Shown piece after piece: positions 1-11,153 of a stretch of DNA of 11,153 nucleotides. The notes beneath the pieces are model-generated. The model had not been told where the DNA came from. It made no database searches and worked only from the letters and a program-made list of their open reading frames with translations. Both the position numbers and the translations under genes were made by a program. The DNA comes from a virus (taxonomy: Duplodnaviria > Heunggongvirae > Uroviricota > Caudoviricetes): the IMG/VR virus record IMGVR_UViG_2541047938_000007, positions 1-11,153 of that record; one strand, written 5' to 3'. The first letter of the stretch is position 1, and each line of letters begins with the position of its first letter.

Positions 1-321
1 TCATATCGCTGGATTATCGTCTTCCACTGCACGGTTAATGAGATGTGTCAGAATGCCCTTCACATCCACCTCATCAAGAACCTCACCGTCAAGAACTTCA
101 CCATCTACCGTTATCAGTGCATCACCTCTACGCTTGGCAAAGTGACAGCCTCCTGAGTACGAAATCAGGTAGGTGCTATCTGGTGATGGCTTCATTCCCG
201 TTTCTATCACAGCAAACCCATGTGATGTCTCAATCACCAGGCTGTTAGCCGTGACGCCGCAGATAGTCTCTATGGTTAGCGTGCGTTCAATGTAGTCTTT
301 GGCTGGACTTGGAAACCTCAT
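1..321 (-). CDS. hypothetical protein (106 aa), distal gene of a putative SOS-regulated two-gene operon
   Basis: Complete ORF, ATG at 321..319 and stop at 3..1. Its start lies 1 nt after the stop (325..323) of the upstream 79-aa gene, suggesting translational coupling. Contains an internal DGEVLDGEVL duplication encoded by a 15-bp tandem repeat. No family recognised. Confidence 0.5.
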   Translation of the reverse strand: MRFPSPAKDYIERTLTIETICGVTANSLVIETSHGFAVIETGMKPSPDSTYLISYSGGCHFAKRRGDALITVDGEVLDGEVLDEVDVKGILTHLINRAVEDDNPAI

Positions 322-322
322 A

Positions 323-562
323 TCAAAGCCCTCCGTTCGGATTGTACATGAACCACGTCTTGTTCTCCCCGTGGTCAGGGGTGATGTCTTTGAAGCAGGT
401 GGTGTATCTGGCTATCCACTGATTTGCCTCTTCCAGGCTGAGATCCCAGTTGACGTTTAGTAGTTCCTGCACAAAATCAGCAGTTTTCACAATCCTGCGG
501 CCTGACCTTTCATGCACAATAGAGGCCCTGAAGGCAATCTCAATATCTGAACGACGCGGCAT
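323..562 (-). CDS. hypothetical small protein (79 aa), first gene of a putative LexA-regulated operon
   Basis: ATG at 562..560 preceded by GAGGTG about 7 nt upstream (minus-strand reading TTGAGGTGACTACATG). A LexA-box-like palindrome sits 22-37 nt upstream. No family recognised; not obviously DinI-like. Confidence 0.55.
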   Translation of the reverse strand: MPRRSDIEIAFRASIVHERSGRRIVKTADFVQELLNVNWDLSLEEANQWIARYTTCFKDITPDHGENKTWFMYNPNGGL

Positions 563-583
563 GTAGTCACCTCAAAATAAGCA

Positions 584-599
584 CTGTATACATATACAG
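584..599. promoter_or_regulatory. putative LexA (SOS) operator, CTGT-N8-ACAG
   Basis: Sequence cACTGTATACATATACAGca matches the E. coli LexA box consensus TACTGTATATATATACAGTA at 17 of 20 positions, with both CTGT and ACAG arms intact and an AT-rich centre. Lies in the divergent intergenic region, much closer to the 79-aa gene start (562) than to gtrA (678). Confidence 0.6.
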
Positions 600-677
600 C
601 ACATCTTATTCTGATAGTCGATCAAGTTGTCTGTTGGTGCTAAACTTCTGCCTTCTCAGAATTGACTGATTTTTCTA

Positions 678-1040
678 ATGTTAAAACTTTTTGCTAAGTA
701 CACATCGATTGGCGTACTCAACACGCTCATTCACTGGGTTGTGTTTGGTGTTTGCGTGTATGGACTATCAACAAGCCAGGCATTGGCTAACTTCGCTGGC
801 TTCGTCGTCGCAGTGAGCTTCAGTTTCTACGCTAATGCACGGTTCACCTTCAATGCTTCAACATCTACCCTGCGCTATATGCTCTATGTGGGCTTTATGG
901 GCACGCTGAGTGCTGCGGTAGGTTGGGCTGCTGACAGGTGTGGGTTACCGCCAATCGTCACACTGGTGGCGTTCTCAGCCATTAGCCTTGTATGTGGCTT
1001 TTTCTATTCTAAGTTCATTGTCTTTAGGGAAGCGAAATGA
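678..1040 (+). CDS. gtrA: GtrA, bactoprenol-linked glucose translocase (flippase) of O-antigen glucosylation systems
   Basis: 120-aa, very hydrophobic small protein with about four predicted TM segments. ATG at 678; stop overlaps the gtrB start (ATGA at 1037-1040). Size, hydropathy and sequence resemble GtrA/YfdG of serotype-converting phages (recalled). First gene of a three-gene gtr triad. Confidence 0.88.
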
Positions 1041-1948
1041 AAATTTCTCTGGTCGTTCCGGTCTTCAATGAAGAGGCCACGATACCGATTTTCTATAAAA
1101 CGGTGCGAGAGTTCGAGGGGCTAAAGCAATACGATGTTGAAATCGTGTTCATTAATGACGGAAGCAAAGACGCAACAGAATCAATTATTAATGCGCTTGC
1201 TGTTTCTGACTCGTTAGTTACCCCGCTCTCATTTACCAGGAACTTTGGCAAAGAGCCAGCTCTGTTTGCCGGGCTTGAGCACGCTACTGGCGATGCTGTA
1301 ATTCCGATTGATGTTGACCTGCAAGATCCGATTGAAGTCATCCCTCACCTGATTGAGAAATGGCATTCGGGTGCCGATATGGTACTGGCAAAACGCTCTG
1401 ATCGTTCTACTGATAGCAGGCTTAAGCGTAAGTCTGCTGAATGGTTCTACAAGCTGCACAATAAAATTAGCTCACCAAAAATTGAAGAAAACGTTGGCGA
1501 TTTTCGTCTGATGTCTCGCGAAGTTGTCGAAAACATTAAGCAATTACCAGAGCGCAATCTATTCATGAAAGGCGTTCTTAGTTGGGTTGGTGGAAGGACT
1601 GATGTCGTCGAATATGCACGTGCAGAGCGTGTCGCTGGAGATTCCAAATTTAATGGCTGGAAGCTTTGGAACCTTGCCCTTGAAGGCATTACAAGCTTCT
1701 CAACATTCCCATTACGTATGTGGACGTACATTGGATTATTTGTTGCTGGACTTTCATTCCTTTATGGCGCATGGATGATTTTAGATAAGATTCTTTTTGG
1801 CAACAGCGTTCCAGGCTACCCATCACTACTCGTTTCTATCCTGTTCCTGGGAGGCATACAACTTATAGGTATAGGGGTACTTGGTGAATACATTGGAAGA
1901 ATCTATGTGGAAGTAAAGAACCGACCGCGATATATTAAGAAAGGTTAA
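1037..1948 (+). CDS. gtrB: GtrB, bactoprenol glucosyltransferase (GT-2 family)
   Basis: 303 aa. N-terminal GT-2 features ([15 protein letters not shown], DxD-like IPIDVDLQD) and C-terminal hydrophobic helices. Translationally coupled to gtrA. Typical GtrB/YfdH size and order. Confidence 0.9.
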
Positions 1949-1952
1949 TTTC

Positions 1953-3320
1953 ATGAATATTAAGCTTGATGCTAAATTTTTATTCTTTGGTGCGCCATTA
2001 TTTTTTTATTTCCCTTTTATTATCAATGGTGTTTTATATAGAGATGATATAAATCGAGCAACAGAGAATTTTACATACTGGTCTTGGCTGGGAAGACCAG
2101 TATCAGATTTAATTTGGAAAGTCCTATCTTTAGGAGGTCAAGGACCACTCTTAGAACCATTGACGATTATATTATCTATTTTTATATTGGGTTTTTCAGT
2201 AAATCTGTTTTATCAAAAAACCAATCACTTATTTCATGACGCAGGTCCTTTTGTATATATTTTATTAGTAATATCTCCATTTTACACTCAAAATATTTCA
2301 TATCAATATGATGGCATAACGATGTCAATCGCAGTTGCATGCGCACTGATTGCCACAATTGTCACACTGAAAGAAAACTTAATATCATATTTAGTTCACT
2401 GCGCTTTGCTTGTTATAGCAATGTCAATTTATCAGACAACTCTAAATATGTTTGCAATCCTTTCTTTGGCAATTATTTTCGCGAAGACTTGCACACACAA
2501 AGCACTGCCATTGAAATATTTAGCATGCATCGCCTCATCTTTTGTTCTTGCGTTAATTTTATATAAATTTCTAATTATAGATGTATTTATTTCATCCTCA
2601 CGAAGTGACATATCACTAGACAATCTCCACACAAACTTCATTAACTTCTCATCAATTATAGCATCACCATTTAGAGGTTATTTAGTTTCAATATTTTATT
2701 GCATTGTCGCCTTATCTTTTTATTCTTTAATAAGAAAGAGAGGTGTTTTGATTGGAGTAACGTTCCTTTTCTTCTGTGTAATGGCATTCTGTTTAATTGC
2801 AGGTCCATTTATTTTACTAAAAGAAGGGATTGCAGAGCCTAGAATGTTATTAGGATTCTCACCATTTATATTTCTCTGCCTTTACCCACTTAGAGGGAGA
2901 ATCTCAACAGTATCTTCTGTGATAGTTTTTTCTGTATTTACAATAATATCTTACCAATGTGCCTCTTCAATTAAAACACAGAATGATTATGAAAAATCGC
3001 TTGCCATGCAATCCTCTCAGGAAATTATTAACGCGGTAAAGGAAAAGTCTTCAAAGGTTTATATACAAGGCGAATTTCCGCTATCAAAAATATCCAAAAA
3101 CTCTGCGGCGGATAATGAGTTCATTAACAAAATGATTGCCCCCTCCCCTTGGTATACAAGAATGTTAATTAACATTTATTATCCCGGAACTGTACACATT
3201 GATTGGAAGGGAAAATACTTATCTAGTCACGAATTAGAAAAATGCAATGTCTTAAAGAGTAATATCTTACTAACTATATATAACTGTAATAATATTACCT
3301 ACGTTGAAATTCACAAATAA
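1953..3320 (+). CDS. serotype-specific O-antigen glucosyltransferase (GtrC / type-specific Gtr family), polytopic membrane protein
   Basis: 455-aa ORF starting 5 nt after the gtrB stop. Highly hydrophobic N-terminal two-thirds with a more hydrophilic C-terminal domain. Markedly AT-rich relative to gtrA/gtrB, as is typical for the variable third gene of gtr operons. Exact type not recognised. Confidence 0.7.
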   Translation: MNIKLDAKFLFFGAPLFFYFPFIINGVLYRDDINRATENFTYWSWLGRPVSDLIWKVLSLGGQGPLLEPLTIILSIFILGFSVNLFYQKTNHLFHDAGPFVYILLVISPFYTQNISYQYDGITMSIAVACALIATIVTLKENLISYLVHCALLVIAMSIYQTTLNMFAILSLAIIFAKTCTHKALPLKYLACIASSFVLALILYKFLIIDVFISSSRSDISLDNLHTNFINFSSIIASPFRGYLVSIFYCIVALSFYSLIRKRGVLIGVTFLFFCVMAFCLIAGPFILLKEGIAEPRMLLGFSPFIFLCLYPLRGRISTVSSVIVFSVFTIISYQCASSIKTQNDYEKSLAMQSSQEIINAVKEKSSKVYIQGEFPLSKISKNSAADNEFINKMIAPSPWYTRMLINIYYPGTVHIDWKGKYLSSHELEKCNVLKSNILLTIYNCNNITYVEIHK

Positions 3321-3328
3321 ATAGTATT

Positions 3329-3351
3329 GTGCGCCGAAAAACTCGGCGCAC
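3329..3351. terminator. GC-rich hairpin between convergent gtr(type) and tailspike genes; putative bidirectional terminator
   Basis: GTGCGCCGA-aaaac-TCGGCGCAC, a perfect 9-bp stem, sits exactly between the gtr(type) stop (3318-3320) and the tailspike stop (3354-3356). Flanking U-tracts are weak. Confidence 0.45.
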
Positions 3352-3353
3352 TA

Positions 3354-5312
3354 TCATTGAGCTTGAGCCGTTAGTATTTGACCACCAGAATACGCAGTAA
3401 GACTAGTAATTTCATTAGCCAAAAGGACTTTGAACATATTTCGATCTTGACCAAATACAGCACCAGAAAAAAATGTACCAAGATTTCTATTTCCTCCGGC
3501 AGTAGGCATTCTTATAAATAAGTATGATGTTCCTTCATATGTCCCTGTAAACCAAGCATCATAATCTGCGAGAGATTGACTATCACAGTGAGCAGCTCTA
3601 ACTAATTTTGCGCGCGTAGAGATATTGCTGCCTACTGTATTAAAGTCATACGCTCCCGCTATGGGATTAAGATCTTGCCCGCTACGTAATGTATAAATAG
3701 TTCCAATGCACCCACGTCCACCATATTGCCCCCCCATAATGCGATAGTACGGACCCGCCGTTTGGTCTGGATTGGGTAGAGTCAAATCTCTACACATTGT
3801 TGTGCTAAATGTAGGAATGGTGGCCGTGCCTCCATCAAAACCGATAGTACTGAATGTTGCTGTTGTAGTATCATAAGCATTGCGCTGAGGCCACCCTGAC
3901 TCTGGTTTGTTACTATATATAATCTCAAACTTGGCACCATTTAATGTTCTAGATCTTGCCCCATTGCAAATGGTATCTGAACTACAAACCAGTTGCTTAA
4001 TGCTTACTTTTGAATAACCTGATATGTCAAACATATACGTCCCTGCAACTTGAGTTTGTGTATACAGTTGTAGGTTATTTATCTGTAAGTTTGCGCCAGT
4101 AGATTTAATTACAGTGCCATTATTATTCCTATTTGGCTGTTCACAACCTAGCGATGAAATGCTAAATGAACCACTATTAAATACAAATGGTGTACCCAAG
4201 CAATCATCTGAAGCTAGAGGTCCAACTTCACAATAAGACACTGACAATTCGAATGAACAGTAGTTTGAACGAAACACACTGCAATTTGCAATAGTGTAGC
4301 TCGTTCCTCCCTTTATAAAAAACCCTCCGTAAATTCCAGCATTATCAGATCCTTGAACAACTATATCTTTTACTGTAATAGCAACAAATGTATTACCACC
4401 AAAGTAGACACCCCACTTCATGGCGAGGATAAATAGATCACTTAATTCTTGGTAAACCGCTGTATTAGGCGTGTAATACCCATAGCTGTCTTCAGTCGTA
4501 TCAATTATCCTGAGACCGTGAATAACATTCCCACGCTTACCTTTATTATAAAACACCGCGTTCACATCCTGTGTGCTAACGCCTACTTTCCTGATTATAG
4601 ACCCCCTACCTTCACCAACAAAACGACTACCAGGTTGTTGGTAGTATAACTCATTATATACATCCTGAAGATCATATAAAATAACACTATCGGTAATAGT
4701 ATAATCTCCAACTGGAACAAAAATGATTTTACCAAACTGGGCAGACACCTTAGATGCTCTATTAAAAGCGAGTGTCCAATCAGGGTCTGAATCAAGTTTA
4801 AAATCCAATACCGAGATTAATTCAGCGTTTTTGTTATGCTGCGTTCTGCTTGCAGTCCCATCAAAAGGCTGCTTAACAGCAATAAGAGCATCTCCGTATT
4901 CAGGAGATGCCAACATCACCCTAAGAGATGAATCTCCAATGCCTACCCATGCTCCAGCGCCAACACCACCACTTGAATCTGGGGTCGAGCCTGCATTTAC
5001 AACTTTTGGAAGGTCACCATCCCAACGGTAATATTCACCGTCACCATCAGGTAACTTCCAGCGTAAAGCTTGATCAGCTTCAGTTAACGTATTGCCTTCC
5101 TGGAAGGAGTCCATCAAATTCCATCCCATGGATGATAGTTTTTCCTGATAGCGCTTTTCCATTCCATACCAGGTAAGGCGATCAACGCCGAATCTGTCTT
5201 TCCATACCTCATTTTCTTTGTCATTAGAAAGGTAGTCAAAGTTCTGAGAATTGTCGTATAAATCTTTTGCAGCAGCAGACCCCAGCGGATTGCCGGTATT
5301 ATAAGTAGTCAT
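3354..5312 (-). CDS. phage tailspike / tail fibre protein (receptor-binding protein, probable beta-helix O-antigen-recognising domain)
   Basis: 652-aa ORF, ATG at 5312..5310 with GAGG 6 nt upstream. Last gene of the minus-strand tail module, directly after the J-like gene. Gly/Ser/Thr/Asn-rich with beta-strand-like periodicity typical of tailspikes. The N-terminal about 150 aa resemble conserved anchor domains of enterobacterial prophage tail fibres (recalled, unverified). Confidence 0.65.
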   Translation of the reverse strand: MTTYNTGNPLGSAAAKDLYDNSQNFDYLSNDKENEVWKDRFGVDRLTWYGMEKRYQEKLSSMGWNLMDSFQEGNTLTEADQALRWKLPDGDGEYYRWDGDLPKVVNAGSTPDSSGGVGAGAWVGIGDSSLRVMLASPEYGDALIAVKQPFDGTASRTQHNKNAELISVLDFKLDSDPDWTLAFNRASKVSAQFGKIIFVPVGDYTITDSVILYDLQDVYNELYYQQPGSRFVGEGRGSIIRKVGVSTQDVNAVFYNKGKRGNVIHGLRIIDTTEDSYGYYTPNTAVYQELSDLFILAMKWGVYFGGNTFVAITVKDIVVQGSDNAGIYGGFFIKGGTSYTIANCSVFRSNYCSFELSVSYCEVGPLASDDCLGTPFVFNSGSFSISSLGCEQPNRNNNGTVIKSTGANLQINNLQLYTQTQVAGTYMFDISGYSKVSIKQLVCSSDTICNGARSRTLNGAKFEIIYSNKPESGWPQRNAYDTTTATFSTIGFDGGTATIPTFSTTMCRDLTLPNPDQTAGPYYRIMGGQYGGRGCIGTIYTLRSGQDLNPIAGAYDFNTVGSNISTRAKLVRAAHCDSQSLADYDAWFTGTYEGTSYLFIRMPTAGGNRNLGTFFSGAVFGQDRNMFKVLLANEITSLTAYSGGQILTAQAQ

Positions 5313-5326
5313 ATGGGCCTCATTAA

Positions 5327-5348
5327 CAAAAAACCTGCCAATGCAGGT
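5327..5348 (-). terminator. putative intrinsic terminator/attenuator between the J-like gene and the tailspike gene
   Basis: On the minus strand ACCTGC-attg-GCAGGT (6-bp stem, 5333-5348) is followed by UUUUUUG (5332-5327), then the tailspike RBS and ATG. Confidence 0.45.
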
Positions 5349-5369
5349 TAATGGAGATGTTATTAGTGA

Positions 5370-7592
5370 TTAAGAAATGTTGCCGGGGTAAGTGGCATTA
5401 TCATATTGATAGAAAGAGTCGCGATATTCTTTGGCTGTTACCTGACATGTTCCGTCAGACTGCGGTGATATCTCTGAGATTAGTGCACTGTAACCAACAC
5501 GTGAAGATTCGCAGAATATAAGACGTGGAGGTTCTATCGATTGATCATTCAGTATGATGCCAATGAACTCATCCTGTTCAGATACCGATAGTTCATAATC
5601 ACTAACTTTAGTAACTGGAAGCAGACCAGAAGCTGATCCATCCTGGTAGCGAATCAATGCGCGAGGATTGTTGAATGTCCAGTCAAGAGGCTCTGAAACT
5701 GTGAATGTCGTTACGCCGCCACTCGTACTCATATCATCGATCAATGTGCTTATTGTTTTGCTACCAGGAATGTCATCAGTAAACACAATTCTGTCACCTA
5801 CGCTATAGCAAAGTGCATCCATTTCCGTGGTCGTTGTATGGGTAAGACGCTGCTGCCTGTACTTCATCAGTCGTCGCATACCTATCTGATAAGCCCTGTC
5901 CTGGTCAAGAACACCATCAAGATCGTAATCTTCTATTTTCACTGGCGTAGGATTGTCAGACGTTCTGCACTGAACAGTCTCTTCAGCCCACGTAGTGCCG
6001 TTAATGTAAGTGACATCCACTCCATCATAATCATCGGCTGATGGTGCAACGAAGGCCGTTTGAAGCGCTTCTGTCATTTCCTGCGGACTAATTATTCCCG
6101 TCCACGTTTTTACCCCCTCCCTTCCCACTGAAGCCATACCGTCAGACAGCAGAAAATAGCTTTTACCTGCGTTAGTGACTTTCTGTAGCATTTCAAGCGC
6201 GGAAACTGAGTCGGTTGTTGCGTAATCGAAAAACTCGCTATCAGGCGTCCAGTAAGATGATTCCAGCATATCAATCACTTCGTTATCCATCGCAAGCCCT
6301 AACTCATTACCAATGTGGTAAAGCGCGCCTGAAATGCTCCTGGAAATACCGGAATCATAAATGCGTGTGGCGACTACGTTGACACGGCGATCAGACTGAG
6401 CGGCAAGCTTTCCACCTGTTTCGACTGAGACAGCCATAGTGGTTACACCAGAGTATGATGATGGTCTTGAAAGCAACCTCCCCCTTAATGACTGCCAGTA
6501 CATGTTATCCCTGCTGTTATCCTGGCCTTGTTCGTTCGTTCTCCTGCATCTAACCTCCACCAAACCGGCCGATGCCAGCGTGATACGTTCGGTAAAACCT
6601 AACCCATTAATATTTTGCTGATTGTAAGACCCAGTTTTGCTTGTCCATCCTGAACCCGAACCGTAAACACGGTACTGAATTTCCCACTGAACAATCCTGT
6701 TCTGCTTCTTGCCTTTCTTGTTATACCCGCAAATACCGTTAGCCAGGTCAACAACGCCGCCAACCAGGTCAGTTAGTCCCTGAATCACCTGAGGGTCTTT
6801 GAAAACATCGCCCATGTCAGTGATCGCATTCTGTAATCCTGACAGGTCAACATTTGCAAGACCGGTAGCAATCTCAATTTTTACGCCGTTAACCTGCGTC
6901 TCCATGTCTTCAAACAGGGAGTTTACTTTCACCAGTTTTTCGATGTCTGCATCATCAGGGGCAACACCAAACTGCTTTGCCGCGTCCATGTACTGGCGAA
7001 GCTTTTCACCACCCTGATCAAGTAAGGGCAGGAGCTTTGACAGGTCATTACCAAGGCTTTCGAGAATGGTTGTTTTTTCGGCGTTTGTTTTTATCTTACC
7101 AAGAGCATCGCTGATAGCGAGAAGTTGTTTATCAGGTGACTCACCGGCTAATTTTTTTGCGGATAATCCAAGCGCATCAAGCGCACCGACAGCTTCACCA
7201 GATTTATTTAAGACCGCATCACCAATCTTATCGCCAATATCTTTAAAGATATCGGCCATCTGGTCACCAGATACCCCAGCCTTTTCGGCTGCATACTGCC
7301 AAGCCAGCAGAGACTGAGTAGACATATTGAGCGACTTAGCCCAACGGTCTGTTTCAGTGATCTGTTTGGAAGTGGTTTTCAGCAGGTTATAACCAGCAAC
7401 GCCTACACCAATTGCCGCAGCGCTTGCTGCTGTCGCAAAAGCGGTGAACGCGGTGGCCGCAGCCTTGGCGTCGGATTGTACCTGTTTACGCCATTTTTGA
7501 GATGCTCGCTCAGACTGGCTTAGGCCAGAGACAAAACCACCAACCTTAGCAACAAGGTCGATAGTCAACGTGCCGAGGGATTTACCAGCCAT
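5370..7592 (-). CDS. tail protein: tape-measure-like N-terminal region fused in frame to a host-specificity (lambda J-like) region
   Basis: 740 aa. ATG at 7592..7590 lies 1 nt after the stop of the GT frameshift product, the expected tape-measure position. Residues 1 to about 290 are Ala/Lys/Gly-rich and coiled-coil-like, typical of a tape-measure N-terminus. From about residue 300 there are J-like motifs (LRGRLL...PSSY; AYQIGMRRL...FSVGDRIVFTDD; PPRLIFCESSRV), aligned by eye to the central part of lambda J. Confidence 0.65.
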   Translation of the reverse strand: MAGKSLGTLTIDLVAKVGGFVSGLSQSERASQKWRKQVQSDAKAAATAFTAFATAASAAAIGVGVAGYNLLKTTSKQITETDRWAKSLNMSTQSLLAWQYAAEKAGVSGDQMADIFKDIGDKIGDAVLNKSGEAVGALDALGLSAKKLAGESPDKQLLAISDALGKIKTNAEKTTILESLGNDLSKLLPLLDQGGEKLRQYMDAAKQFGVAPDDADIEKLVKVNSLFEDMETQVNGVKIEIATGLANVDLSGLQNAITDMGDVFKDPQVIQGLTDLVGGVVDLANGICGYNKKGKKQNRIVQWEIQYRVYGSGSGWTSKTGSYNQQNINGLGFTERITLASAGLVEVRCRRTNEQGQDNSRDNMYWQSLRGRLLSRPSSYSGVTTMAVSVETGGKLAAQSDRRVNVVATRIYDSGISRSISGALYHIGNELGLAMDNEVIDMLESSYWTPDSEFFDYATTDSVSALEMLQKVTNAGKSYFLLSDGMASVGREGVKTWTGIISPQEMTEALQTAFVAPSADDYDGVDVTYINGTTWAEETVQCRTSDNPTPVKIEDYDLDGVLDQDRAYQIGMRRLMKYRQQRLTHTTTTEMDALCYSVGDRIVFTDDIPGSKTISTLIDDMSTSGGVTTFTVSEPLDWTFNNPRALIRYQDGSASGLLPVTKVSDYELSVSEQDEFIGIILNDQSIEPPRLIFCESSRVGYSALISEISPQSDGTCQVTAKEYRDSFYQYDNATYPGNIS

Positions 7593-7593
7593 G

Positions 7594-8237
7594 CTATGTC
7601 CACTCCTGCATAGCCTGTTCCAGTGAAATGGAAGGCTCGTTAATGTGTGGTGTGAAGTCTGTTACTTTGAAGTGGGGTGAATCTTTTCCACGGTTGACGT
7701 TTGCCAGCACAGAAGAAATTAGGCCAGCGGCCCACTCGGTACGCATCATTCCGTTAAGGCTTCCGTACTTTTGACGGTAAAGAACCCAGTCGCGATACTC
7801 TGTAACGCTAACGCGTTCTTTTGCTTCAGCAATGGTGCGGCCGCCGATCCCGTTGAGAACTAATTCACACCAGAATTCGTCGTCTGCGCTGAGTTCGCCT
7901 TTCCCAGGTCGTTAACCTGCTGAATAGCGACAAGCAGAGCAACCGTAAGAGCACCATCGAGTGCGCCGCGCTCAGGATCTGCTTCACCAGTGATATCGGC
8001 AACAGTGAAAACTGGAGCGCCATTTTCATCACAGATGGATGCAGCGATACGCCCTGCTACACCATCAATTTTCCCCACCGCTGAAAGAACATTTGATACC
8101 GCGTCGTGATAACCCATTGGTCGGATATAAACGGTAGCTGTGATCTCTTTATCGCCCTGCTTCCAGGTGATTTCCTTCTCAACAGGACGACCAGTAAACG
8201 CCCCTGCCTGTTTTAACGAATCCAGATTCAGTTTCAT
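7594..8237 (-). CDS. tail assembly chaperone G-T fusion made by programmed -1 ribosomal frameshift
   Basis: The -1 frame stays open from the heptamer GGGAAAG (7905..7899, minus strand) for about 100 codons to a TAG at 7596..7594, which ends 1 nt before the next gene's ATG. This is the same arrangement and the same heptamer as lambda G/GT. Confidence 0.6.
7860..8237 (-). CDS. tail assembly chaperone (lambda gpG analogue)
   Basis: 125 aa, ATG at 8237..8235 with GAGAGGAAAG upstream. Sits immediately upstream of the tape-measure-like gene. Contains the slippery heptamer G GGA AAG 13 codons before its stop. Confidence 0.75.
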   Translation of the reverse strand: MKLNLDSLKQAGAFTGRPVEKEITWKQGDKEITATVYIRPMGYHDAVSNVLSAVGKIDGVAGRIAASICDENGAPVFTVADITGEADPERGALDGALTVALLVAIQQVNDLGKANSAQTTNSGVN

Positions 8238-8254
8238 TTCTTTCCTCTCAGTTT

Positions 8255-8270
8255 GCGGGGTTTCCCCCGC
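8255..8270 (-). repeat. GC hairpin copy 1 (mRNA sense GCGGGG-gaaa-CCCCGC), between the major-tail-like ORF and the G gene
   Basis: 6-bp stem with a GNRA-type GAAA loop on the late transcript, followed by the RBS and ATG of the chaperone gene. Identical core to the copy at 8943-8960. Confidence 0.5.
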
Positions 8271-8287
8271 TTATTAATGCCTGGTTA

Positions 8288-8689
8288 TTAGCTCGTTGGT
8301 TGGGCCTTTGGAACCCAAACACCTTGCCCTGAACGCTGAATGGTTGCGGAAGTTTGCACGACCGTATTCGCCTGGAAGTCGAACGGGAAATCTGAAACAT
8401 AACCCTGGAATACATACCAGGTACGTGTATCCGGCAGAGAAAGACCATCAACTGCATCTGGATCACCAGACGTCGCTACCGTTGGTTCATCCGTTCCGTC
8501 AGCCCAGCCAATAGCGAAGGTCAGGTTTGTCTGGTCACTGGATTCAGCCAGGTTGCTCAGCATTACATGGCTGGAGTTTGCCGGGTCTGCGTTAAGAGCT
8601 ACAGTAGCCTGACCGGGGGTGCGCAGACCTTTTTTGTAGGAACGAGTATTGGTTTCACTCAGACAGGTATCTTCAATCTGGTCTGACAA
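8288..8689 (-). CDS. major tail protein-like ORF, possibly 5'-truncated (lambda V position)
   Basis: 133-aa ORF in the ORF track that actually starts at a TTG with no convincing RBS. Occupies the position just upstream of G/GT, and has weak by-eye resemblance to the lambda V core. It is in the same frame as the upstream 56-aa ORF, separated by a single TGA. May be a remnant rather than an intact gene. Confidence 0.4.
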
Positions 8690-8764
8690 AGGAAAATATC
8701 GGAGTCCAACCGCGAGATGATGGTTGCTGTAGTGCTTTCTCTTTCCGTCTAAAAGGATTCCACA

Positions 8765-8935
8765 TCAGCCATTCTCCGCGTTTTCTTTTTTACTTTTACG
8801 CACCACTGCTTTTTTGCTGGTTACGTATTCCGCCTTTTTCAGCAGAACCAGCACCTTTGCGCACTGGTCATTCACAATTTTCTCATCACCTGGCAATGAG
8901 TCATGTGTACGCTGAAGGTATCTGATTTTTGCCAT
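8765..8935 (-). CDS. small Lys-rich hypothetical ORF (56 aa)
   Basis: ATG at 8935..8933 sits 5 nt after the hairpin at 8943-8960. A strong SD-like GAAGGAGG lies immediately upstream of that hairpin. Not in the supplied ORF track (shorter than 60 aa). Coding status uncertain. Confidence 0.3.
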   Translation of the reverse strand: MAKIRYLQRTHDSLPGDEKIVNDQCAKVLVLLKKAEYVTSKKAVVRKSKKENAENG

Positions 8936-8942
8936 TTGAAAT

Positions 8943-8960
8943 GGCGGGGTTTCCCCCGCC
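8943..8960 (-). repeat. GC hairpin copy 2 (mRNA sense GGCGGGG-gaaa-CCCCGCC), between the structural-gene fragment and the 56-aa ORF
   Basis: 7-bp stem with GAAA loop, same core as copy 1. On the mRNA it is flanked by GAAGGAG upstream and an AUG 5 nt downstream. Confidence 0.5.
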
Positions 8961-8967
8961 CTCCTTC

Positions 8968-9468
8968 TTAGCTGGTTGAGCCAGTGCTGTAATCCACGTC
9001 AGAGATAACGGCTACGGCTGCATCACGGCGACGCTTCCAGTTAATCCAACGCTCGGCACGGATTGCCACGCTGTTGGTCTGGAACATAGACACCAGTTCA
9101 ACTGGAGTTGGCGTTGTGCTGTCGTGGGTCGGATCGCTCTGCATTTCCAGAGAAGCTTCGCGAGACATATCAACGGCGACGCCGCCATCATCTGCCAGAT
9201 AAACATCTGGTGCGTTAACCAGTACCAGTTGGTTGCCAACGTACTGTGAAACGATCACCGGCAAGCCCTGGAACGTACCGCCCAGCATGGTCATATCTGG
9301 GTATTCTTTCTGACCAAGCGCGTTTTTACGCATAGACAGAGTAAGTGCCGTAGTGCTGGACATCAGCCATACCGCACCATTCGGCTGCAGGTTGTTCGTA
9401 ATGAACTGACCAAATGCTGCAGAAGCATCAGTACAGGCTAACCATGAGCATAGTTCGATGTCACGCGT
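8968..9468 (-). pseudogene. 5'-truncated phage structural gene fragment (capsid or head-tail protein-like C-terminal part)
   Basis: The reading frame is open from 9468 down to the TAA at 8970..8968. The annotated ATG at 9363 has no RBS and is probably an internal Met. The fragment runs head-on into the 5' end of the integrase fragment. Family assignment is tentative. Confidence 0.4.
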
Positions 9469-10057
9469 TTACAGGTGGGGATATCAACGTGGATTTGTGC
9501 CAGGCAACCCATGCGTAGGCGTCGATAAATACCCTAAACCTCAGCGCGACCGATACATTACGGATGAAGAGTATTTAGCGATTTATGACTGTGCTACTGA
9601 TCCGGTCAAAGCAGCAATGGAAATTGCTTATCTCTGTGCCGCCAGGGTTTCCGATGTTCTGAAAATGGACTGGAATCAGATAATGGATAAAGGAATTTTC
9701 ATTCAACAGGGTAAAACTGGAGTTAAGCAGATTAAAGCGTGGACAGACCGTTTGCATTCAGCAGTCAATCTTTGCAGGAAATCAGGGGAAGATGGCGCTG
9801 TCATCAAAACCATGTACGGAGAGCGATATTCCTATAAAGGTTTCAATGAAGCCTGGAGAAAGGCGAGAAATGCGGCTGCTGAAAAAATTGGCAGACCGTT
9901 AGACTGCACGTTCCATGATCTGAAGGCGAAAGGCATTTCTGACTATGAAGGAAGTGGCCGCGATAAGCAAAAATTCAGTGGTCACAAAACTGAATCACAG
10001 GTGCTGGTATACGACAGGAAAGTAAAAATCAGCCCAACTTTGAACAGAAAAATGTGA
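9458..10057 (+). pseudogene. tyrosine recombinase (phage integrase), C-terminal catalytic-domain fragment, 5'-truncated
   Basis: 199-aa ORF with catalytic-domain features (AARVSDV Arg region, HDLKAKG, GHKTESQVLVYDR with the C-terminal Tyr). Lacks the N-terminal arm-binding and core-binding domains; there is an in-frame stop at 9407-9409 just upstream. It is transcribed toward the 3' end of the adjacent tRNA, as expected for an int next to attL. Confidence 0.8.
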
Positions 10058-10069
10058 GTTTGAGATACA

Positions 10070-10099
10070 GCGCCGGGTGCAAATCTGGCGTTATTTTTT
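10070..10099 (+). terminator. putative Rho-independent terminator downstream of the integrase fragment
   Basis: Stem CGCCGG / CTGGCG (one G-U pair) with an 8-nt loop, followed by TTATTTTTT, starting 13 nt after the int stop. Confidence 0.5.
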
Positions 10100-10126
10100 C
10101 TCAGTGGATTTTCTCATTTTTTCTCA
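10093..10126. repeat. direct repeats ATTTTTTCTCA (x2, plus a third TTTTCTC) between int and the tRNA 3' end; candidate att-arm/IHF-type sites
   Basis: ATTTTTTCTCA at 10093-10103 and 10116-10126, with TTTTCTC also at 10109-10115. Located in the expected attL arm region. Function not demonstrable from sequence. Confidence 0.3.
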
Positions 10127-10172
10127 ACGGGATGTTGGTCACTGAATCGAAACACTGTAAGTGCTTGAATGG

Positions 10173-10262
10173 TGGCGGAGAGAGGGGGATTTGAACCCCC
10201 GGTAGAGTTGCCCCTACTCCGGTTTTCGAGACCGGTCCGTTCAGCCGCTCCGGCATCTCTCC
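10173..10262 (-). tRNA. serU: tRNA-Ser (anticodon CGA)
   Basis: The minus strand reads GGAGAGATGCCGGAGCGGCTGAACGGACCGGTCTCGAAAACCGGAGTAGGGGCAACTCTACCGGGGGTTCAAATCCCCCTCTCTCCGCCA (90 nt). It has a 7-bp acceptor stem, anticodon stem CCGGT/ACCGG with loop CUCGAAA (anticodon CGA), a long variable arm, a T-loop GGTTCAAATCC, and an encoded CCA. Confidence 0.9.
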
Positions 10263-10355
10263 GTTCAGATGGTTGCCATGATGCCAGGAAATTTGGCATT
10301 TTAACAGTCCCTGTCCGTGCAATTTTGTTCAAGTGACGAGTTTGCGAGCAAAACG

Positions 10356-11153
10356 ATGATTAAGTGGCCCTGGAAAGTACAAGAATCAGCACATCAAACT
10401 GCCCTTCCCTGGCAGGAAGCACTATCGATCCCCCTTTTAACGTGTCTGACGGAACAGGAACAAAGCAAATTAGTCACTCTTGCCGAACGTTTTTTACAGC
10501 AAAAGCGGCTTGTTCCTTTACAGGGCTTTGAACTGGATTCATTAAGAACCTGCCGGATAGCACTTCTATTTTGCCTACCCGTTCTGGAATTAGGACTGGA
10601 ATGGCTGGATGGTTTTCATGAAGTCTTAATTTATCCTGCGCCATTTGTGGTCGATGATGAATGGGAAGACGATATCGGTCTGGTGCATAACCAACGTATT
10701 GTTCAGTCAGGTCAGAGCTGGCAGCAAGGGCCTATCGTTTTGAACTGGTTGGATATACAAGATTCTTTTGATGCTTCTGGTTTTAACCTGATTATTCATG
10801 AAGTCGCTCATAAGCTGGACACCCGTAACGGCGATCGCGCCAGCGGAGTTCCCTTTATTCCGTTGCGTGAGGTTGCTGGCTGGGAACACGATCTTCATGC
10901 TGCAATGAACAACATTCAGGAAGAAATCGAATTGGTTGGCGAGAATGCGGCGAGCATTGATGCTTATGCTGCCAGTGATCCTGCTGAATGTTTTGCCGTA
11001 CTTTCTGAATATTTCTTTAGCGCCCCAGAACTTTTTGCTCCTCGTTTCCCTTCATTGTGGCAACGTTTCTGCCAATTTTATCAACAAGATCCTTTGCAGA
11101 GACTGCATCACGCTAATGATACAGACTCGTTTTCGGCGACGAATGTTCATTAA
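10356..11153 (+). CDS. mtfA: MtfA (Mlc titration factor A), zinc-dependent peptidase
   Basis: 265-aa ORF from the ATG at 10356 (MIKWPWKV...); the ORF-track start at 10317 is a GTG extension. Contains the HEXXH zinc-peptidase motif ([10 protein letters not shown]). Matches E. coli MtfA/YeeI as recalled. Complete, with TAA at 11151-11153. Confidence 0.9.

Follow-up and report, generated by a model that had tools for sequence, protein, structure and literature searches.

The window analysed here is the whole stretch of 11,153 nt (positions 1 to 11,153 of the virus record IMGVR_UViG_2541047938_000007). It begins with two small genes, here called A and B, which lie beside the gtr cassette behind a predicted LexA box, and the question raised by this locus is what such an SOS-linked gene pair might provide to its carriers. 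The preliminary description had regarded the pair as the least explained coding unit in the window, with a toxin or an antirepressor among the candidate products. Comparison of sequence profiles and structure models indicated that gene B is UmuD'/HumD-like. The unit therefore loses this rank, being a variant of the humD module that is LexA-regulated in phage P1. No evidence was found for the toxin or antirepressor reading. Gene B is of a known kind, and the new element is the 79-aa A family, almost always the companion of such genes.

The coordinates of the operon are listed in Table 1. The two open reading frames agree with the arrangement described earlier, a 79-aa gene followed after a 1-nt gap by a 106-aa gene, next to gtr. 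The stop codon of A and the ATG of B are separated by a single base in the window. Of 142 distinct A-B pairs, 106 have an overlap (B starting at -1 nt relative to the last base of the A stop), while in 21, the window among them, the spacing is +1, in 13 it is +2 and in two it is 0. A GGAGG or GGGAGG sequence lies inside the C-terminus of A in all 13 loci in which the A-B junction was compared. Judging from these junctions, the translation of A and B looks coupled.

Table 1. Positions of the operon features in the window
Feature	Position	Strand	Basis or remark
Gene A, 79 aa	323..562	-	ORF; ATG 562-560, stop TGA 325-323
Gene B, 106 aa	1..321	-	ORF; ATG 321-319, stop 1-3
Shine-Dalgarno GAGGTG, gene A	568..573	-	Sequence; ends 5 nt before ATG 562-560
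Shine-Dalgarno GGAGGG, gene B	329..334	-	Within the final A codons (Asn-Gly-Gly)
Predicted LexA (SOS) operator	582..601	.	Palindromic core CTGT-N8-ACAG at 584-599
Inferred -35 element TTGATC	620..625	-	Conserved hexamer in related promoters

The LexA (SOS) operator of the gammaproteobacterial type is a CTGT-N8-ACAG palindrome with an AT-rich spacer, which overlaps or adjoins the promoter. The core of the box in the window is CTGTATACATATACAG, and the whole 20-mer agreed with the LexA consensus TACTGTATATATATACAGTA at 17 of 20 positions; none of 200 shuffles contained an equally good match. On the strand of gene A the box reads TGCTGTATATGTATACAGTG, with mismatches at positions 2, 11 and 20 and with both CTGT/ACAG arms intact. 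Its position 22-37 nt upstream of gene A and its 17/20 score were thus confirmed as first described. The CTGT-N8-ACAG pattern is present as a single copy in the window (shuffle expectation 0.14 per window; at least one copy in 27 of 200 shuffles). Conservation of the box-gene pair across relatives, which had been proposed as a check, was borne out: a perfect CTGT-N8-ACAG precedes the A start by 21-42 nt in 121 of the 142 distinct A-B pairs, and CTG-N10-CAG was found in six additional pairs of the same set. The box consensus across related pairs is TACTGTATATACATACAGT. Because the box has been kept in 121 of 142 related pairs, it is more than a chance match. By analogy, it is a predicted LexA operator in front of a two-gene prophage operon, where LexA would bind and SOS induction would follow.

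The promoter elements were compared in the same way. The hexamer TTGA[CT]N was found in 114 of the 121 related promoters, with TTGATC in 106, and its distance to the downstream CTGT is 19 nt in 99 loci and 20 nt in 12, the window being among the latter. The -10 candidate of the relatives, TACTGT, follows at a 17-nt spacer and falls on the left arm of the LexA box, so LexA would be expected to occlude the promoter. The -10 hexamer of the window is TGCTGT/GTGCTG, without the -11 A, and its hexamer-to-CTGT distance is 20 nt instead of the usual 19; lacking the -11 A, the promoter of this copy may be weaker. A consensus promoter scan of the window called no promoter at the A/B operon. A terminator-like call (602-581, minus strand) was rejected; it corresponds to the LexA palindrome with the following T-run TTATTTT, and the consensus scan probably made a false call here.

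The box lies within an intergenic region of 115 nt shared with gtrA, which starts divergently at 678, and is 78 nt from the gtrA start. It might therefore mainly regulate the divergent gtrABC O-antigen modification operon. This is very improbable, because in other loci the box goes with A/B beside any divergent neighbour, including a dinI-like gene, an acyltransferase, a tail fibre gene and a resolvase, and its position is fixed relative to the start of A or B. The TTGATC hexamer also holds the sole GATC (Dam site) between gtrA and A; several GATC sites, as arranged in phase-variable gtr promoters, are absent from this intergenic region.

Neither protein had been assigned to a recognisable family in the preliminary description, which held for A but not for B. 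Gene B matched PHROG 3469 (UmuD-like protein) from end to end (E 9e-41), and hhalign of a profile of 12 B homologues against residues 25-137 of the E. coli UmuD gave a probability of 97.7% (E 2.5e-12). The alignment contains a gap of 11-12 residues exactly at the SGDSMIDGGIS loop with the catalytic Ser60. The Ser60/Lys97 dyad of the S24 peptidases is absent from B, with the SGDSM loop deleted and Ser60 opposite Ala or a gap. The dyad is dispensable once UmuD' has formed. A phmmer search of B against the PDB sequences found UmuD' (1umu, E 0.012), with residue 3 of B aligned to residue 2 of UmuD', which indicates that B begins where UmuD' begins after cleavage between Cys24 and Gly25. The N-terminus of B in the window, M-R-FPSPAKDY, aligns with G25-FPSPAADY of UmuD, and the MGFPSPA of its relatives equals the UmuD' N-terminus.

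The AlphaFold2 model of B is an all-beta domain (pLDDT 78). The top PDB matches in Foldseek were the UmuD/UmuD' structures 1ay9, 8gmt, 1i4v and 1umu, with a probability of 1.00 and TM 0.53-0.58 and with E values of only 0.02-0.06; structures of the LexA C-domain were also matched. The FPSPAxDYxE arm, the C-terminal VxGVVT strand and the DDxPV(I/M) tail are common to B, P1 HumD, N15 gp26 and the UmuD-like protein of HK639. The curated models place B at a distance: the NCBIfam HumD model NF051876 gave 22.8 bits (cut-off 120) with only residues 1-25 matched, the NCBIfam UmuD model matched the N-terminus only and far below its cut-off, and a Pfam search including Peptidase_S24 gave no match at E up to 1. 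Since it falls under the curated HumD cut-off, B was filed as a divergent short subfamily and not as HumD proper. Taken together, the alignments and the model identify B as a divergent, catalytically dead and pre-processed UmuD' of the P1 HumD kind. Both checks named earlier, by profile and by structure, agreed on this assignment for B, and left A without a family.

At 90% identity the B family falls into 1,820 clusters, with Klebsiella as the main source, and the names given to its members vary between 'hypothetical', 'S24/S26 family peptidase' and 'UV protection protein'. The dN/dS of B against its relatives was 0.10-0.15, indicating purifying selection. The B of the window starts with MRFPSPA, where all close relatives (L015, L019-L022, L099 and L100) have MGFPSPA. 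The Gly replaced in this G2R exchange is otherwise invariant and is equivalent to Gly25, with which mature UmuD' begins; Arg at this position would also prevent the initiator Met from being removed.

The closest known system is humD of phage P1, which like B is a phage-borne, pre-truncated UmuD' homologue with a GFPSPA start and a LexA box about 20-40 nt upstream. The P1 record annotates the LexA site 20 nt upstream of humD and carries the note that the product 'functionally complements E. coli UmuD''. Work of McLenigan and co-workers from 1999 is also cited for the P1 HumD precedent. The N15 gp26 and the UmuD-like gene of HK639 share the position next to the tail fibre gene, and in HK639 the integrase gene comes next. 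HumD has 127-129 aa and keeps the Ser60/Lys97 region, whereas the B of the window has 106 aa and the loop deleted; P1, N15 and HK639 also have no A gene, unlike the window. The operons umuDC, mucAB and impCAB are LexA-repressed like this module, and their UmuD-type product partners the UmuC polymerase. The module differs from them in that it contains no umuC (except in one Pantoea lineage) and in that B would not need the RecA-mediated cleavage required by UmuD. The operator of some related A/B loci is TACTGTATATAAAAACAGTA, the same sequence as the umuDC operator. The impCAB operon reportedly has a small first gene, as described by Lodwick and colleagues in 1990. Its product ImpC is presumably DinI-like; A is set apart from DinI itself by an hhalign probability of 0.3%.

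The reading preferred here, with a probability of roughly 0.6, is that the operon is a LexA-repressed and SOS-inducible module that supplies a ready-made UmuD' for the host UmuC together with an accessory factor, A. From what is known of umuDC and P1 HumD, we infer LexA repression, induction by damage and a pol V-like enzyme of B and UmuC. LexA on the box overlapping the inferred -10 element would repress the promoter; upon DNA damage, the RecA-stimulated cleavage of LexA would free it, and A and B would then be made by coupled translation. The B protein, starting just past the UmuD cleavage site and with the self-cleavage loop lost, would serve as a ready-made UmuD' mimic. Its most likely action is that of P1 HumD, namely to dimerise and to assemble with the host UmuC into a translesion polymerase of the pol V type, which would not have to wait for RecA-mediated UmuD processing. 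For A, the most likely role is one alongside the pol V components, in which it would bind B, UmuC or a partner of these. The outcome would be help for the replication of damaged phage and host DNA while the carrier of the prophage or plasmid is under SOS conditions. Through SOS mutagenesis, pol V is a driver of mutation under stress and of resistance evolution, and mobile elements with a ready-activated UmuD' bypass the slowest control step of the host.

The short B could behave differently from HumD, as it is below the HumD cut-off and has no Pfam S24 match. It may be a decoy mini-UmuD', which forms heterodimers with the host UmuD/UmuD' or titrates UmuC, and thereby restrains or retimes the host translesion synthesis during prophage induction. 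In the short B, 11-12 residues of the active-site region are gone that are still present in HumD; this would fit such a role, as would its strongly acidic character (pI 4.1-4.7), its score under the HumD family cut-off and the DinI-like gene (a RecA modulator) in 109 of 261 loci. However, the invariant N-terminal FPSPAxDYxE arm and the C-terminal strand of B are kept in UmuD'/HumD, and the same slot interchangeably holds HumD-type proteins, for which the P1 entry records complementation; the decoy role is thus considered unlikely.

A further alternative concerns only the copy in the window, namely that the operon of this prophage remnant is a silent or decaying relic. Several features point in this direction: the inferred -10 without the -11 A, a spacer one base longer than in most relatives, the G2R exchange of B unlike all close relatives, the degraded appearance of the surrounding prophage, and the Pantoea copies that are pseudogenes. 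On the other hand, both open reading frames, both Shine-Dalgarno sequences and the core of the box are intact, the operon region has 100% and 98.3% identity in two other E. coli genomes, and dN/dS against the relatives was 0.06-0.15. A relic therefore appears improbable, and a functional module remains the preferred reading for the window.

Gene A matched PHROG 3893, annotated 'unknown function' (E 6e-33), and gave no match in Pfam, NCBIfam, PADLOC or the PDB sequences. Only noise was obtained when a profile of A was searched against the PDB sequences and when 28 members of the A family were searched against Pfam. A defence-system reading was rejected, as neither A nor B matched PADLOC at E up to 1. 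The homologues of A amounted to 98 representatives among 1.84 billion representative proteins, and nearly all have 76-80 aa. Three long, multi-stretch hits of the deep A search (P0051, P0076 and P0103) were rejected as tandem-repeat artefacts. The dN/dS of A was 0.06-0.10, which indicates selection at the protein level. Some members carry the RefSeq label 'DNA polymerase V'; this label is without model support and looks like naming by neighbourhood. Literature searches returned nothing on the A family. A is a genuine orphan, a widespread SOS-linked family without described relatives.

The AlphaFold2 model of A (pLDDT 89) has the H-b-H-H-b-b topology of a winged helix, and its Foldseek matches in the PDB were the winged helices of the forkhead, TubR, PadR and Fur types, of which the best reached E 0.08 and TM about 0.5 and is not significant. 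The sole match in the viral library was a member of its own family, gp28 of HK225. The fold of A is predicted to be winged-helix-like. Its conserved positions are mostly in the core (F11, F30, L34, W49 and I50), together with R3, N47 and D59. The A proteins are near-neutral in charge, the predicted wing is acidic, and the wing and recognition helix contain no conserved basic residues; the acidic wing and near-neutral charge are atypical for a sequence-specific DNA binder. The statement that the 79-aa protein does not resemble DinI was upheld by the hhalign probability given above, and an assignment of A as a DinI/ImpC-like protein was rejected, with no Pfam DinI match in the 28 family members either. 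Other candidate identities were also rejected: a 'split LexA' (hhalign probability 0.06% with LexA residues 1-70, and no LexA among the top 50 Foldseek matches), a P1 Hot/theta-like protein (hhalign 1.1%), and P1 Lxr (lxr is a divergent gene of 190 aa, and P1 has no A).

The distribution of the two genes was examined in phages and prophages. By tblastn, 47 phage records were found to contain A and 53 to contain B, from phages of Klebsiella, Enterobacter, Cronobacter (phiES15), Erwinia and Pantoea as well as HK225 and mEp390, and the usual site of the module is between the tail-fibre gene and attP/int. A further 160 loci were fetched via B and 82 via A. A UmuD'-like gene was immediately downstream of the full-length A in 179 of 188 cases (95%), and in 78 of the 82 loci chosen via A. 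Among the nine A genes without it are fusions and deletion remnants (HK225, P18-100, L137 and L237) and, at L007, an additional partial copy. Another is in the single locus in which the order is reversed, the enterobacterial L075 (2501-3053), where B comes first and is followed by an overlapping A. In mEp390 (NC_019721, L002, locus 2762-3000), A is unannotated, and a 42-aa ORF on the opposite strand, gp25, is given over the same bases, which is probably a mis-annotation.

The converse linkage is looser. Of 145 B genes, 87 have A upstream and 58 (about 40%) have no A; in most of the latter, a LexA box precedes B itself by 33-40 nt, as in P1 humD. In the loci L099 and L021, gtrA, the intergenic region and B are arranged as in the window, but A is missing, and the divergence of these loci from the window starts just after the -35-like TTGATCGAC. 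This breakpoint just after TTGATCGAC indicates that 'box + A' was exchanged for 'box' by recombination. A is dispensable, since A-less B genes with a direct box exist, including in the window's own gtrA-B context. Moreover, A genes of at least 90% identity are paired with B genes down to 30% identity, and the converse also holds (r = 0.51); A and B thus recombine freely. The partners of A include both the short B type and long HumD-type proteins of 127 aa. Divergent A genes were stand-alone in three of seven contexts examined, and the LexA box of the stand-alone A is intact at L271 and L272, while at L269 the box is degenerate and A is internally duplicated. The linkage of A with UmuD' is thus tight but not obligatory.

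These data bear on the possibility that A is an autonomous SOS factor, such as a DNA-binding regulator or an antirepressor, which has no role in pol V and merely occupies a LexA-controlled slot. The invariant unit is 'LexA box then A', the box is retained in front of A genes that stand alone, each of the two genes is exchanged without the other, and the predicted fold of A is the common winged helix of DNA-binding proteins. LexA-controlled antirepressors occur in other phages, including Tum of phage 186, those of the Gifsy phages and AntC of N15. Nevertheless, a UmuD'-like gene comes directly after 95% of the A genes, with the stop/start overlap, and the charge and surface features described above do not favour DNA binding. 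The module is also far from the immunity regions and occurs on conjugative plasmids without a phage repressor, and the structural matches of A to antirepressors are insignificant (E 0.14). An autonomous A is therefore rather doubtful, and a module in which A accompanies a UmuD' is still preferred.

Other SOS-related genes were observed near the module. A DinI-like gene, counted above in the fetched loci, is divergent from the module in those inspected (L002 of mEp390, L010 of HK225, and L019), and some of the loci with this neighbour have two LexA boxes. In ten loci a gene for an SOS-response-associated peptidase (SRAP) is convergent to B. Together with A/B, the DinI-like and SRAP genes form a small SOS island at the phage ends. 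Neither a DinI-like nor an SRAP gene is present in the window.

Plasmid records with gene A numbered 1,062; 951 of them are conjugative, and the majority are IncX3. In pIncX-SHV, the LexA box is followed by A and by a HumD-type gene cut by IS26, which is the 'delta-umuD' of the IncX3 literature. This region resembles the window in the order of LexA box, 79-aa A homologue (50% identical) and HumD-type gene, but differs in its conjugative plasmid backbone, in the truncation of B by IS26, and in the box broken by ISKox3 in NDM plasmids. The published IncX3 descriptions list delta-umuD among the ORFs of unknown function and make no mention of A. In pNDM-IncX3I2 (L264, about 2400-2500), ISKox3 lies inside the LexA box before A, and the left CTGT arm is replaced. 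The same 51-base stretch, attaaatacaccattatcatgccttcagccaccacaacaagggaagaccc, directly precedes the remaining right half of the box in L264 and in the record of the Enterobacter phage ENT1 (L012, 1-80). These observations suggest repeated targeting of the LexA palindrome by insertion sequences, together with loss of LexA control. Enterobacterial prophages in their hundreds and some 1,060 plasmid records carry A as a conserved partner, and the IncX3 backbone with A spreads the NDM and KPC carbapenemases.

A different arrangement was found in four near-identical megaplasmids of Pantoea agglomerans, which have the LexA box, A and then a full-length umuC, with no umuD between them. Here A occupies the umuD position directly before umuC, and in pAR8b_A (L266, 2960-4502) the umuC ATG overlaps the stop of an intact A (TGATG). 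This A-umuC arrangement is confined to these four megaplasmids, a single lineage; the other Pantoea copies are pseudogenes. The C-terminus GAM* of A in pAR8b_A might come from the end of a deleted umuD. As a tentative proposal, A might be a hitherto unrecognised, LexA-controlled component or regulator of pol V, which binds UmuD'-type dimers and/or UmuC and tunes or enables translesion synthesis from prophages and from important resistance plasmids like those of IncX3. Should A modulate pol V, a well-studied pathway would gain a new participant that is easy to test; otherwise, what remains is the correct re-annotation of a humD-like accessory (moron) gene.

In the window, the A-B operon is an accessory module at the tail-fibre and attachment-site end of an E. 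coli prophage remnant. The only RNA found by an Rfam search of the region was a tRNA. This tRNA (10176-10262) adjoins mtfA, and the CUWW10 annotation gives it as tRNA-Ser. With a length of about 10 kb, the prophage has the look of a remnant, with one ORF of 740 aa for a tail protein at 5370-7592 and an integrase-like ORF of 199 aa at 9458-10057, the counterpart of which in CUWW10 has 329 aa. In CUWW10, copies of IS1 interrupt gtrB and the tail region.
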